Shown here: positions 1 through 64,000 of the stretch, one piece after another
Position numbering within the stretch: the first letter of the stretch is position 1
Layout: each line of letters begins with the position of its first letter
DNA from: Escherichia coli
Lineage (GTDB): Bacteria; Pseudomonadota; Gammaproteobacteria; Enterobacterales; Enterobacteriaceae
DNA: 64,000 bases
Reading direction: 5' to 3' (one strand)
NCBI RefSeq assembly: GCF_024502345.1
Contig: NZ_JALDNN010000001.1
Made by a program: the position numbers and the translations under genes
Notes under the pieces: model-generated
Databases searched by the model: none
Told to the model about the DNA's origin: nothing
The model's input: only the letters and a program-made list of their open reading frames with translations

Positions 1-214
1 TATACTTATCTTTTGGTGAACGACCGGTGAAGATCCCGGTATCGACGGCAACGGCACCCAGATTAGTTAACACCCCGCGCTCATAACCTGTCAGGCTCGG
101 ATCGAGCTCTTCCTGATACAGCAGGTCGTAGCTTGGGTTGTAAACGATATCATGTACGTCACTGATACCATAAGCCTCGAGTTCTTGCGGGGTCAAACCA
201 TTGTTAACGCGCAT
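1..214 (-). CDS. pckA: Phosphoenolpyruvate carboxykinase (ATP), 5' part only; gene runs off the window start
   Basis: Reverse strand from ATG at 214 reads [32 protein letters not shown]..., a recognisable Pck N-terminus; AGGAG Shine-Dalgarno just upstream. Confidence 0.9.
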
Positions 215-592
215 TTCACTGCTCCTTAGCCAATATGTATTGCCTGAATAGTAAAGTCTTTTTGGGGGTGTTAACCGCGACAAGGCTCATAGATTTACGT
301 ATCTGGAGAAATTCATATTTGACAAAAAACTCCGTGATTCCTGTCACGAAACGGTTGCTATTATCGCAGAAATAGCATTTTAGGTGTGGAAAATGTTCTC
401 AAAAGGTTAAATCTTGGTTTATATGGCGGGAATATTGTGAGTGGAATCGCATTCCTGAATGAAATTGATGCAAATTCAACCGGTAAAGTATCGATTCACC
501 ACGCTAACTTTTTTTGATTATTTTCTGAAAAAAGCAAAATACTACTGCCCGGATGCGATAATTAACCCACCTTTTGATTCTGGATAACCAAC

Positions 593-2094
593 ATGGATAA
601 CGTTGAACTTTCACCCGCAACACGCTGGGGGATGATTGCTACCGGATTACTTCAGGGTCTGGTTTGCTACCTGCTGATCGTCTGGCTTTCCGGAAAAAAT
701 CACAGTTGGATTGTTTATGGCGTGCCTGCGACCGTTGCGTTTTCATCCGTTTTACTCTTCTCCGTGATCTCTTTTAAACAGAAGCGCCTTTGGGGATGGC
801 TGGCGCTGGTGTTTATTGCCACGCTGGGGATGAGTGGCTGGTGCTTTTACTGTGGGGCGAGTTGTTTAAACTTGTTGGCATCACGTTTTTCAAAACGCTC
901 TTTTTTGCAACCGACTGGTTTATTTATCTCACGTTAGGTCTGGTTACCGCGCTGGCGGTGATCCTCGCGCGAACACAGTCACGTTTAATCGACTCTATTC
1001 AAAAGTTGTTCACGTTAATCGCCACGGGGTTGCTGCCGTTAGTCTCATTGCTAACCCTGATGTTTATCATCACCCTGCCGTTTACGGGCCTGAGCGCGAT
1101 TTCTCGCCACATCTCCGCCGCCGGGTTGCTGTTGACGCTGGCCTTTTTGCAATTGATCTTAATGGCTATTGTCCGCGATCCGCAAAAAGCGTCTCTTCCC
1201 TGGACGGGGCCGTTGCGTTGCCTGATTAAAACCGCTTTGCTGGTTGCTCCGCTGTATGTGTTCGTCGCCGCCTGGGCGTTATGGCTGCGGGTCGCTCAGT
1301 ACGGCTGGACTGTCGACCGCTTGCAGGGCGCGCTGGCGGTGCTGGTGTTACTGGTGTGGTCGCTGGGGTATTTTGTCAGCATTGTCTGGCGTAAAGGGCA
1401 AAATCCCCTTGTTCTTCAAGGCAAAGTGAACCTTGCGGTTTCGGTATTGGTGTTGGTGATACTGGTGCTTCTTAATTCGCCGGTGCTGGACAGTATGCGC
1501 ATTAGCGTGAACAGTCATATGGCGCGTTATCAGAGCGGTAAAAACACGCCAGACCAGGTAACTATCTACATGCTCGAACACAGCGGTCGCTATGGACGTG
1601 CGGCGCTTGAGTCGCTGAAAAGCGATGCCGAGTTTATGAAAGACCCGAAACGCTCGTGGGATCTGCTGATGGCGTTAGATGGGGAGCAAAGTCTTCAGAA
1701 GGTGGTGTCGGAAAAATCATTAGCCGAAAATGTGTTAATTGCCCCTGGTTCTGGTAAACCGGATGCGACATTCTGGTCGGCCTTAATCCAGGATCGCTAT
1801 AACGTGATGACCTGTATTGAAAAAGACGCCTGCGTACTGGTCGAGCAAGATCTGAATAGTGATGGCAGGGCAGAGCGGATCCTCTTTGCCTTTGATGATG
1901 AAAGATACATTGTCTATGGCTTTGATCCTGACAAGAAAGAATGGCAAGAGCTTACGATGAGTTTACTTCCGCGTGATATAACGAAAGAAAAATTACTCAC
2001 AGCTGCGAAGGATGGAAAACTGGGAACGAAGCCTAAAGCGTGGCGCGATCTTGTAGTGGATGGTGAAAGGCTGGGTGTGAATCTGAATGAGTGA
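593..2094 (+). pseudogene. yhgE: YhgE-like inner-membrane protein gene with interrupted reading frame (593..937 in one frame, 790..2094 in the next)
   Basis: Two consecutive overlapping ORFs, both hydrophobic and membrane-like; first frame opens at ATG 593 after TGA at 575 and stops at TAG 935-937; second frame is closed by TAA 775-777 and runs to TGA 2092-2094. Confidence 0.6.
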
Positions 2095-4204: not shown

Positions 4205-6340
4205 TTATTCGATAAGGCTTTCTGAAGGGGTGATCAGTTGCGGGTTCAGGCAGCTTTCATAATAGGCCTGAATCTTCATCATGCGAGTGCGATGACGCTG
4301 GTAACGCCGCCAGGCCTGTACGCCATTGTAAATGGCGCTACCCAGCATCGTCAGTAGCAGCAGCGTGGTGCTGAGATAGCGCCACAGGCCGGAACGATCC
4401 GGGATCGGATGAAGGCCTATATGCTGCGTACCATTGGCGTTAGTGAAGATTTTTGTGACGATACCCTCGGCGTTAAACGGCGTATGCATCAGCATTTGTG
4501 CCAGTTTCTGGAAAGCGTTCCACTGTTCTTGCGGCGGGTAGTCGTAAAGTGATGCCGAAGGCCAGGGCTGATCAACAAAATCGCTGCCTTCGTCGCTGAC
4601 AATCAGGAATCCGCCGGGGGCCGGACTGTTTAGTGATTGTGCTGCTCGCGCCGTTTCATGCGTGATAAACGGCGCGGTGGAGGTTGCCACCAGGTTATCC
4701 AGCGATTCCGCACTCACCGGGCGTAATAACACATTCACGCCATCGAGCTTCCCGGCGTTGGCGCGTTTTACCAGCGCGTCCCAGTCTTTACTGTTGCCGA
4801 GATTGACCAGCGCATTTTTCAGTCGCACACAGTCATCTTTGGCAGAACACAGATCCGCTGTCTTCAGTACAATGTCGCCAAAATCATCAAGCAATACCAT
4901 GCCGGATTTTTGAATCGCTGAACGTAATGAGGCACTGACGCGAGATTCATCTTCCGGTTTAGGGTGCAGCTGGCGATTAACTGCTTCAGTCAATGCCGTC
5001 GCTTTGTTGACCAGCTCAGATTCTGGTAATGGTAATGAGCGGGCGTCATTCCAGATGATCTGCGAGCAGTCAAACGGTAAAAAAGGTGAATTGGTTTTCG
5101 CGCTCCAGGTTCCGGAAGTGCGAATATTACACATTCCCGTACCGCTAATACGCAATGTATCGCCTACCCGCACGCCAGCGTCAGCCAGTTGTTTTACGCT
5201 GGTGGCTTCAATGGTCTGCGCGCCTTTCATCCATGAGAGAGTGAATTTCAGCGGCATATCCAGCGGGATCCAGAATAACAGCATAAACAGCACCAGCAGC
5301 GAGCCCGCAGCGATAATCGTACTGCGCAGCCAGTGCTGTAACGGAAAGTTTTTTACTTCATCATGCAGCGAAAGATATCGTCCCTGACGCACTACATGGC
5401 GGTCGAGATAGATATCGATATCGGTTTGTTGACCGAGATCCTGAGCAATGTATGGCTGCCAGTGTGCGGGATAGACCAGGTCGATAATACCGAGTGAAAT
5501 ATTGTTGATCTGTTCCTGATCGTTTTCGCCAAACAATCCCCAACGACGGGGTGTACCGCGCAGACAATGAATTTCCCGCAGGGAGGATTTTGCCGGGGGG
5601 GCGAATAGCCCCCACAGACCTGCGCCCAGCAGCAGTAATGCGCCGCCTGCCAGCCACGGAACAAATACATCCGGGGTAATCAGGCAGAAAAAGAACATCA
5701 GAAAGGAGGCGACGATCAGCAACGCTTCACGCAGCCCGCGCGGACGACTCAGCGCATACTCTTCATGCGTTTCTTTGCGAATATTGAGTAGCTCGATTTG
5801 CTCACTCTCTTCCCCGCGAATCGACGCCTGCGTGGACGGAACAGGTTGCAAGGCATAGCCGCGCGTTTCCTGCATGTACTCCTGCAGCGTATGACCGTTG
5901 AGTGAAATAACCAACGGCAGCGAATCGGTATGAATCAGTTCAACGGTATTCTCATCGTTGATGTACTGTTCCCAGAAGGGGGGCAGGTGGACTTCTACCG
6001 AATCGAGGTAGTAACGCCATTTATTCGGATCGTCGGTAGAGATGCCGTAACGTGTGATAGCGTGTGTCAGCATCATGACGTTGTTGCTTTCGGCATTCAG
6101 CGCCAGAGAGATCGGTGCCGCGCTGGCTCCCGTTGGGCCAGGCACCTGTAATACCTGCGTCAGGCTCTCAAGATAATTTTCAACGGCGCTACGTTCTTCA
6201 GGTGTGAGTTTACGCGTTTGCGCATCCGCGAAGGCGTTGGTCCAGGGCAGCTGACGCCGTCTGGATCGCACTTTTATCAGCCATCCCGCAAGTAGTGAGC
6301 AGGCCAGCAAAGCAGCTAAAAAAATCACAATGGTGCTCAT
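4205..6340 (-). CDS. igaA: Inner-membrane regulator IgaA (negative regulator of the Rcs phosphorelay)
   Basis: 711-aa ORF with multiple hydrophobic segments, MSTIVIFLAALLACSLLAGWLIKVRSRRRQL... Confidence 0.92.
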   Translation of the reverse strand: MSTIVIFLAALLACSLLAGWLIKVRSRRRQLPWTNAFADAQTRKLTPEERSAVENYLESLTQVLQVPGPTGASAAPISLALNAESNNVMMLTHAITRYGISTDDPNKWRYYLDSVEVHLPPFWEQYINDENTVELIHTDSLPLVISLNGHTLQEYMQETRGYALQPVPSTQASIRGEESEQIELLNIRKETHEEYALSRPRGLREALLIVASFLMFFFCLITPDVFVPWLAGGALLLLGAGLWGLFAPPAKSSLREIHCLRGTPRRWGLFGENDQEQINNISLGIIDLVYPAHWQPYIAQDLGQQTDIDIYLDRHVVRQGRYLSLHDEVKNFPLQHWLRSTIIAAGSLLVLFMLLFWIPLDMPLKFTLSWMKGAQTIEATSVKQLADAGVRVGDTLRISGTGMCNIRTSGTWSAKTNSPFLPFDCSQIIWNDARSLPLPESELVNKATALTEAVNRQLHPKPEDESRVSASLRSAIQKSGMVLLDDFGDIVLKTADLCSAKDDCVRLKNALVNLGNSKDWDALVKRANAGKLDGVNVLLRPVSAESLDNLVATSTAPFITHETARAAQSLNSPAPGGFLIVSDEGSDFVDQPWPSASLYDYPPQEQWNAFQKLAQMLMHTPFNAEGIVTKIFTNANGTQHIGLHPIPDRSGLWRYLSTTLLLLTMLGSAIYNGVQAWRRYQRHRTRMMKIQAYYESCLNPQLITPSESLIE

Positions 6341-57464: not shown

Positions 57465-57465
<1 letters not shown>

Positions 57466-57824
57466 TGAAACGAATTGCGTTTGTTTTTTCTACTGTGCCT
57501 CATGGTACCGCTGCCGGGCGGGAAGGTTTAGATGCTTTACTGGCAACTTCCGCGTTAACTGACGAGCTGGCCGTCTTCTTTATTGCTGATGGCGTTTTTC
57601 AGCTACTGCCAGGACAAAAGCCCGGTGCGGTGCTGGCGCGTGATTACATTGCCACTTTTAAATTGTTGGGTCTGTACGACATTGAACAGTGCTGGGTTTG
57701 TGCGGCTTCACTGCGCGAACGTGGGTTAGATCCGCAGACACCCTTTGTTGTCGAAGCCACGCCGCTCGAAGCAGATGCCTTACGCCGCGAACTTGGCAAC
57801 TACGATGTAATTTTGAGGTTTTGA
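57465..57824 (+). CDS. tusC: Sulfurtransferase subunit TusC
   Basis: 119-aa [30 protein letters not shown]... Confidence 0.93.
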
Positions 57825-58700: not shown

Positions 58701-59186
<486 letters not shown>

Positions 59187-62652: not shown

Positions 62653-62678
62653 TTACACGTTAATTAGTTTTGAATTGA

Positions 62679-62703
62679 AAAGGGCGCTTCGGCGCCCTTT
62701 TTG
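62679..62703 (+). terminator. Rho-independent terminator of the str operon (after tufA)
   Basis: AAAGGGCGC-ttcg-GCGCCCTTTTT. Confidence 0.85.
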
Positions 62704-62779
62704 CTGCCCGTAATTTGAGCTCGAAATATTTAGTCGTAATTTTGCTCGCTGAACTATGGCGCAAATAAAACTGTGCTAT

Positions 62780-62798
62780 TGTAATCATAACTATTCTC
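62780..62798 (+). promoter_or_regulatory. Possible Fur box in the bfd promoter region
   Basis: TGTAATCATAACTATTCTC matches about 13 of 19 positions of GATAATGATAATCATTATC; about 40 bp upstream of bfd. Confidence 0.35.
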
Positions 62799-62834
62799 AT
62801 TTACACTTTGCGCAGAATTTGAACGGGAGCAATC

Positions 62835-63029
62835 ATGTACGTTTGTTTGTGTAATGGTGTAAGTGACAAAAAAATTCGCCAGGCAGTCCGTCAGTTTCAT
62901 CCGCAATCTTTCCAACAATTGCGTAAGTTTATTCCTGTGGGAAATCAATGTGGTAAGTGCATTCGCGCCGCGCGCGAAGTGATGCAGGACGAGTTGATGC
63001 AGATGCCAGAATTTAAAGAGATTGCTTGA
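62835..63029 (+). CDS. bfd: Bacterioferritin-associated ferredoxin
   Basis: 64-aa ORF MYVCLCNGVSDKKIRQAVRQ... with CxC...CxxC [2Fe-2S] ligands. Confidence 0.95.
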   Translation: MYVCLCNGVSDKKIRQAVRQFHPQSFQQLRKFIPVGNQCGKCIRAAREVMQDELMQMPEFKEIA

Positions 63030-63101
63030 AGCCCACGCTTATTTTTTGACAACCAGCTAGCCCCATCTACGCTCTAATAGTGGAAGCGGAGGGACTATAA
63101 A

Positions 63102-63578
63102 ATGAAAGGTGATGTTAAAATCATAAATTATCTCAATAAACTATTGGGAAATGAGCTTGTCGCAATCAATCAGTATTTTCTCCATGCCCGGATGTTTAAA
63201 AACTGGGGGCTGATGCGTCTCAATGACGTTGAATACCATGAATCCATCGATGAGATGAAACACGCTGATAAGTATATCGAGCGTATTTTGTTTTTAGAAG
63301 GAGTCCCCAACTTACAGGATTTAGGCAAACTGGGGATTGGTGAAGATGTCGAAGAGATGCTGCAATCCGACCTGCGATTAGAGCTGGAAGGCGCGAAGGA
63401 TCTGCGTGAGGCTATCGCATATGCCGACAGCGTTCATGACTATGTTAGCCGCGATATGATGATCGAGATCCTTGCTGATGAAGAAGGTCATATCGACTGG
63501 CTCGAAACTGAACTGGATCTCATCGGTAAAATCGGCCTACAAAATTACCTGCAATCACAAATTAAAGTTAAAGATTAA
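63102..63578 (+). CDS. bfr: Bacterioferritin
   Basis: 158-aa [40 protein letters not shown]... Confidence 0.97.
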
Positions 63579-64000
63579 CGGCCTATCAGCAAACTATCCC
63601 AGCCTATAACGAAACCCGCAGCCGCCAGAAATGGCCCAAAGGGCAGCGGGTTTTTTAATGATTCTTTTCCTCTCATGAGCAGACCAATAACTACGGCTCC
63701 GCAAGCGAATGAGGCAGCAAGGAAAACCAGTCGTGGTAAGAAGGCCCATGAATGCCAGGCGCCAAGGGCGGCGAGAAACTTCACATCACCATAGCCTAAT
63801 CCTTCTTTATGGCGCAGTATACGATACCCCCAGTAAATGACAGCGAATGTGCCGTAACCAACAATTGCCCCCCATAACGCATCGGCTAAACCATCAGGAT
63901 GACAAACTTGATAGAACAAAAGACCTGACCAGAGTAACGGGCACGTAAATCTGTCAGGTAACAAGCCATGCTTTGCATCCCAGAAAAAAAGTAGGGCTGA
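63575..64000 (-). CDS. hofD: Prepilin-peptidase-like leader peptidase HofD/HopD, 3' part; start lies beyond the window end
   Basis: Reverse-strand frame open to the window edge; hydrophobic ...[30 protein letters not shown]...[17 protein letters not shown]..., typical of A24 prepilin peptidases. Confidence 0.8.

Follow-up and report, generated by a model that had tools for sequence, protein, structure and literature searches.

A putative lineage-specific yhgE pseudogene formed by a 223-bp deletion in Escherichia coli

The yhgE gene in the 64,000-nucleotide stretch of Escherichia coli DNA analysed here (the window, to which all positions refer unless stated otherwise) lacks 223 bp and is split into two overlapping reading frames. 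It is very probably a lineage-specific pseudogene, derived from an ancestor with a normal 1725-nt gene by a single deletion between short imperfect repeats. Judged from sequence comparison, the break appears to be a real and ordinary lineage-specific gene loss.

The interrupted yhgE locus

The region 593-2094 corresponds to E. coli yhgE, which encodes a DUF4153 inner-membrane protein, and the remnant lies between pckA and hslO, the orthologous position of the YhgE/DUF4153 gene. The features of the locus are as follows.

Start of the window, minus strand: 5' end of pckA (from the ORF map)
593..2094, plus strand: yhgE remnant, 1502 nt versus 1725 nt, aligning to intact yhgE in two blocks with a 223-nt gap
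593..937, plus strand: N-terminal remnant ORF, 114 aa, from ATG to TAG 935-937
790..2094, plus strand: second ORF, 434 aa, in a frame open from 778 (after TAA 775-777) to TGA 2092-2094
796..2094, plus strand: ORF of the gene callers, 432 aa, with its ATG at 796 upstream of the junction and in a non-native frame
834..842, plus strand: deletion junction with the retained GTGGCTGGT, one copy of an imperfect 9-bp direct repeat
835..2094, plus strand: C-terminal remnant with native codons 156-574 (835-2091) and the native TGA, open but cut off from the native start
3' of the second yhgE ORF, minus strand: hslO, hslR, yrfG and igaA (from the ORF map)

The segment 400-2300 (1,901 bases) was compared by megablast with 5,426 complete E. 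coli genomes. It matched 5,425 of them, with the locus labelled "yhgE: DUF4153 domain-containing protein" in the matches, and at least 80% of the query was covered in 5,424; yhgE is near-universal in E. coli. Among the matches listed, the query was found in two or more pieces that together extend over at least 2,124 bases versus its own 1,901, the window being 223 bp shorter. As this is a direct structural difference from more than 5,400 reference genomes, chance plays no part in it. The intact gene is 1,725 nt long and encodes 574 aa in strains K-12, 504239, A30, AHM8C212RI, 536 and F9792. In the window, no yhgE ORF runs without interruption for about 574 codons.

Three-way and six-way alignments showed one clean 223-nt gap in the window, at gene nt 242-464 (codons 81-155). 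By BLAST, K-12 nt 1-249 match window 593-841 and K-12 nt 465-1725 match window 834-2094, the two blocks overlapping by 8 nt (834-841). The junction was placed at 834/835, and the alignment allows the breakpoint to be either 833/834 or 834/835. Because 223 equals 74 x 3 + 1, the reading frame is shifted. The ends of the missing segment carry the direct repeat G[C/T]GGCTGGT, with a match of 8/9 (7 exact nt and one G). In the intact alleles the left end reads GATGA-GCGGCTGGT-TGAAG (K-12: GCGGCTGGC) and the right end TTGAC-GTGGCTGGT-GCTTT, and the window at 834-842 reads GATGA-GTGGCTGGT-GCTTT, the downstream version of the repeat having been kept. The yhgE flanks are otherwise collinear with the intact orthologues, in which the deleted sequence is present. 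Alignments with the intact alleles revealed no mobile-element or foreign sequence at the junction, where the flanks abut directly. Disruption by an IS element was also considered and rejected, since neither mobile-element sequence nor a target-site duplication occurs at the break.

These results confirm every part of what the first-pass annotation, made without database searches, had observed. The ORF map bears out its two frames (ATG 593 to TAG 935-937, and 778 to TGA 2092-2094) with their 160-bp overlap, and its view that both parts come from the same membrane protein is borne out by the alignment of both to intact yhgE. Its figure of 574 aa for K-12 YhgE was correct (1725 nt / 574 aa), and the alignment of 593..2094 with references, which it had recommended for locating the indel, turned its estimate of about 220 missing bp into exactly 223 bp and fixed the 1-mod-3 shift, predicted between 778 and 937, at 834/835. 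It had also considered that intact genes might have the same sequence and use a programmed event; the intact genes instead carry 223 extra bases.

The two yhgE ORFs are in different frames (-1) and overlap at 778-937, i.e., by 160 bp. Translation of the 114-aa ORF gives 83 native residues, of which the last three (SGW, 81-83) come from the repeat copy left at the junction, followed by 31 out-of-frame missense residues (84-114). A simple hydropathy scan of K-12 YhgE showed about 11 hydrophobic segments in residues 12-380 and then a soluble C-terminal region. On this scale, the native part of the 114-aa ORF comprises approximately the first three hydrophobic segments, the third being cut short, and the deletion cuts into the DUF4153 membrane domain, where the end of segment 3, segment 4 as a whole, a loop and the greater part of segment 5 are gone. 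In the C-terminal remnant (835..2094), alignment to the intact alleles showed no further stops or indels. Residues 52-415 of intact K-12 YhgE match the Pfam DUF4153 model continuously (model 3-372/373, E = 2.6e-31), whereas the 432-aa ORF matches only model positions 113-372/373 (E = 3e-21); therefore, the deleted segment is taken to be ancestral family sequence.

The opposite polarity, in which the short yhgE is ancestral and the 223 bp are an insertion in other strains, exists as a formal possibility, but its probability is vanishingly small: the 223 bp lie in frame inside a continuous ORF and within a Pfam DUF4153 model built from diverse bacteria, and they are present in essentially all sampled E. 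coli phylogroups. A programmed frameshift, or a functional split gene with two subunits, would fit the 160-nt overlap of ORFs that differ by -1 and the open state of the 419 native C-terminal codons. However, every orthologue inspected, the top-ranked matches included, is a gene of 1725 nt in one frame, and the window differs from these genes by a clean deletion with no conserved shift site. Even a perfect shift would yield a protein short of 74 residues in the conserved DUF4153 domain (model ~33-112), and the state is limited to a rare lineage, so that this explanation is extremely unlikely and is rejected. With 223 nt absent, the frame shifted at 834/835 and a stop at 935-937, the remnant is best regarded as a pseudogene of the family and not as a functional member.

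Occurrence of the junction in other genomes and assemblies

Searches for exact copies of the proteins predicted from the two remnant ORFs revealed carriers of the same junction. The junction 44-mer is common to four other public assemblies (one NCBI, one SRA-run and two ENA metagenome assemblies), among which GCA_050022275.1 and SRR24000611 possibly represent the same isolate, the former possibly not being independent of the window itself. The 114-aa product is encoded in the ENA metagenome ERZ27268145 on contig k141_46626, which matches window 1-1016 at 100% identity. Three assemblies encode the 432-aa product: GCA_050022275.1, the Logan assembly of SRR24000611, and ENA ERZ28657917. Both contig JBAOKM010000007.1 of GCA_050022275.1 (160.6 kb) and the Logan assembly show 100% identity to the window over 5,094 bp. 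In ERZ28657917 the junction is present with one mismatch to the window in 1,363 bp; at this site, window 1044, it has the ancestral A found in all six intact alleles versus a private synonymous C in the window. The deletion is therefore older than the private C and was inherited, and hence is no artefact. At least two slightly diverged strains have it in common. A literature search on the sample and assembly accessions of the junction carriers returned nothing relevant. Contig k141_46626 of ERZ27268145 terminates within yhgE, at window 1016; the assembly graph of this sample may have been broken by a mixture of E. coli strains that differ in their yhgE alleles.

Across the 64-kb window, 62 of 62 other K-12 genes compared show neither gaps nor premature stops, which argues that the window assembly is not indel-prone. 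Among the genes compared in the window, neither IS elements nor further pseudogenes occur, and identity to ordinary E. coli is about 99%. A Shigella source, which the lack of any fully identical match might suggest, is therefore not supported.

The junction is nevertheless rare, and its rarity is what could be said for an artefact in which the genome has an intact yhgE and 223 bp were lost in assembly. None of the best-ranked matches among the 5,426 complete E. coli genomes has the junction in one piece, all those listed having two pieces and 223 additional bp, and the 25-nt junction gave zero matches in JGI metagenome contigs and in GTDB species-representative genomes. Against such a loss, however, the identical junction occurs in four assemblies from different pipelines (a MEGAHIT-style k141 contig, Logan, NCBI and an ENA scaffold), one carrier has the ancestral base at a nearby SNP, a repeat of 7-9 bp is far too short for assembly collapse, and no other indel occurs among the 62 neighbouring genes. 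An artefact is therefore very unlikely, and a sequencing error behind the yhgE break can be excluded for practical purposes. Among the three options offered by the first-pass annotation, strain-specific pseudogene and internal deletion both stand, as one and the same event, whereas sequencing error is not supported, given the four other assemblies and the 62 clean genes. The deleted yhgE state seems to be confined to a rare E. coli lineage.

Origin of the deletion and history of the locus

The deletion reading, which we prefer, starts from an ancestor with an intact 1725-nt yhgE. A single deletion between the two G[C/T]GGCTGGT copies removed 223 bp (gene nt 242-464) and left one copy, and translation from the native start now gives a 114-aa peptide ending at TAG 935-937. 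The route may have been replication slippage or another RecA-independent, microhomology-mediated deletion. Slipped-strand mispairing and microhomology-driven illegitimate recombination are a well-known source of spontaneous E. coli deletions, and a short direct repeat at both ends, of which one copy is kept, is the classic signature of slippage or microhomology-mediated RecA-independent deletion. As a mechanism this is plausible but unproven, for slippage, other end-joining and illegitimate recombination routes would all leave the same sequence. An ancestor with a perfect repeat (left copy AGT for AGC) was also considered; the corresponding hypothetical 61-mer had no 100% match in the 5,426 genomes, the best matches having one mismatch. 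Another 16 families of chance direct repeats, of at least 9 nt, occur in intact yhgE. The segment between the repeats forms no significant hairpin (DNA fold z = -1.56). In addition, no Chi site is found at the junction, only a 7/8 Chi-like GCTGGTGC, the nearest true Chi being at 5198. Chi sites (GCTGGTGG) are distributed unevenly over the window, with 14 on the plus strand and one on the minus strand; this skew is consistent with the plus strand being the leading strand, in which case yhgE would be transcribed co-directionally with replication.

The C-terminal remnant is 95% identical to K-12, versus 98-100% for the neighbouring genes. This lower identity seems to reflect allelic mosaicism and not decay. 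In a block comparison, the remnant is almost the same as alleles of the A30/F9792 type over gene nt 451-900 and 1351-1725, and identical to the allele of the B2 strain 536 over gene nt 901-1200. The yhgE alleles diverge by up to 10-17% in 150-nt blocks in the C-terminal soluble region. Touchon et al. listed the YhgE region among the E. coli hotspots of recombination and phylogenetic incongruence and attributed them to diversifying selection (PMC2617782), and the mosaic pattern observed here fits that listing.

Compared with six alleles, the remnant has five private sites, one synonymous and four nonsynonymous. As a test of relaxed selection, the private nonsynonymous to synonymous ratio of 4:1 was compared with 25:28 for the private changes of the pooled intact alleles, and the difference was not significant (Fisher p = 0.35). 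Alignment to the intact alleles revealed no second disabling mutation in the yhgE remnant. Since no further disabling mutations and only five private substitutions have accumulated, the deletion is probably recent, and so, probably, is the loss of yhgE.

Three other loci of the window were also recorded. At 62653-64000, no chiA follows tuf, and a prepilin peptidase gene comes after bfd and bfr, which are 78% and 83% identical to K-12, respectively. The bfd/bfr locus is one of two deeply diverged haplotypes: the version in the window occurs at 95% identity or more in 2,254 of the 5,426 complete E. coli genomes, and 3,156 match it at only about 79% (K-12-like). The rpsG gene (58716-59186) is of the 156-codon form, and the K-12-derived RefSeq record used for comparison marks rpsG as an incomplete pseudogene; S7 of K-12 is longer through a stop-codon change. 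The tusC gene (57465-57824) is 95.3% identical to K-12, with 17 differences in 360 nt and four amino-acid changes, and its neighbours tusD and tusB are 99.5% and 98.3% identical, which suggests a small recombined patch at tusC.

Consequences of the loss and comparison with known systems

In the deleted lineage, yhgE is most likely functionally dead. Its loss would be tolerated if, as we infer, the gene is dispensable and monocistronic, and no polar effect is expected because yhgE is monocistronic and convergent with hslO. Our literature search found no functional study on DUF4153. The deletion might be real and some function, partial or altered, might still survive in a truncated C-terminal product of 378-432 aa, whose translation would begin at an internal start or re-initiate past TAG 935-937. 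The native frame is indeed open over 419 codons with no stop or indel, gene callers predict a 432-aa protein, and a GTG at 958 sits 21 nt past the stop of the upstream ORF. However, the starts at 796, 841, 862 and 958 were judged by eye to lack a convincing upstream Shine-Dalgarno sequence, and the open frame is explained equally well by a recent deletion with only five private substitutions. Such a protein would also have lost 4-5 hydrophobic segments at its N-terminal end, along with about 110 of 373 DUF4153 positions, so its topology would probably be wrong, and we regard a working truncated product as unlikely.

The same low probability is given to the broader idea that the loss was adaptive (for example by removing a variable envelope protein that a phage or colicin exploits, or by contributing to beta-lactam tolerance) or that a re-initiated truncated YhgE took an altered role. 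The hints for an adaptive loss are the hotspot and its diversifying selection (PMC2617782), persistence in at least two slightly diverged sublineages, and a yhgE start-codon mutation in the evolved K-12 population Evo3A (PMC7394356). In this ampicillin-tolerant population, which evolved under drug cycling, a change of the yhgE start codon to Leu gave a null allele (PMC7394356). However, the authors attributed the phenotype to a co-occurring cyaA nonsense mutation, and no role of yhgE was shown (PMC7394356). The literature search found no other experimental mention of yhgE.

The 114-aa and 432-aa ORFs are better annotated as one yhgE pseudogene than as two proteins. Both are stored as ordinary proteins in public collections, where the 432-aa entry is clustered with 12,731 full-length YhgE sequences, and they form a small example of pseudogene fragments in protein databases. 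The junction GGGGATGAGTGGCTGGTGCTTTTAC would make a handy lineage marker for a rare E. coli clade, and the strain, as a natural yhgE null, could be used for studies of DUF4153 function. Outside annotation, the importance of the finding is slight.

When compared with K-12 YhgE (b3402; PF13687; 574 aa), the window has the same locus order of pckA, yhgE and hslO, and the retained parts are 95-98% identical at the nucleotide level; however, it is without nt 242-464 and frameshifted, so that the full protein cannot be encoded. The Evo3A null allele (PMC7394356) resembles the present case in that yhgE is inactivated and the cells are viable, but the Evo3A lesion arose as a point mutation during drug cycling of K-12, whereas that of the window is a 223-bp deletion. 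The remnant also resembles pseudogenes formed by deletion between short direct repeats: the missing yhgE segment is bounded by repeat copies in the intact allele, and the junction, where one copy is left, is free of mobile-element sequence. Unlike the case of a perfect repeat, the yhgE repeat is imperfect (8/9).
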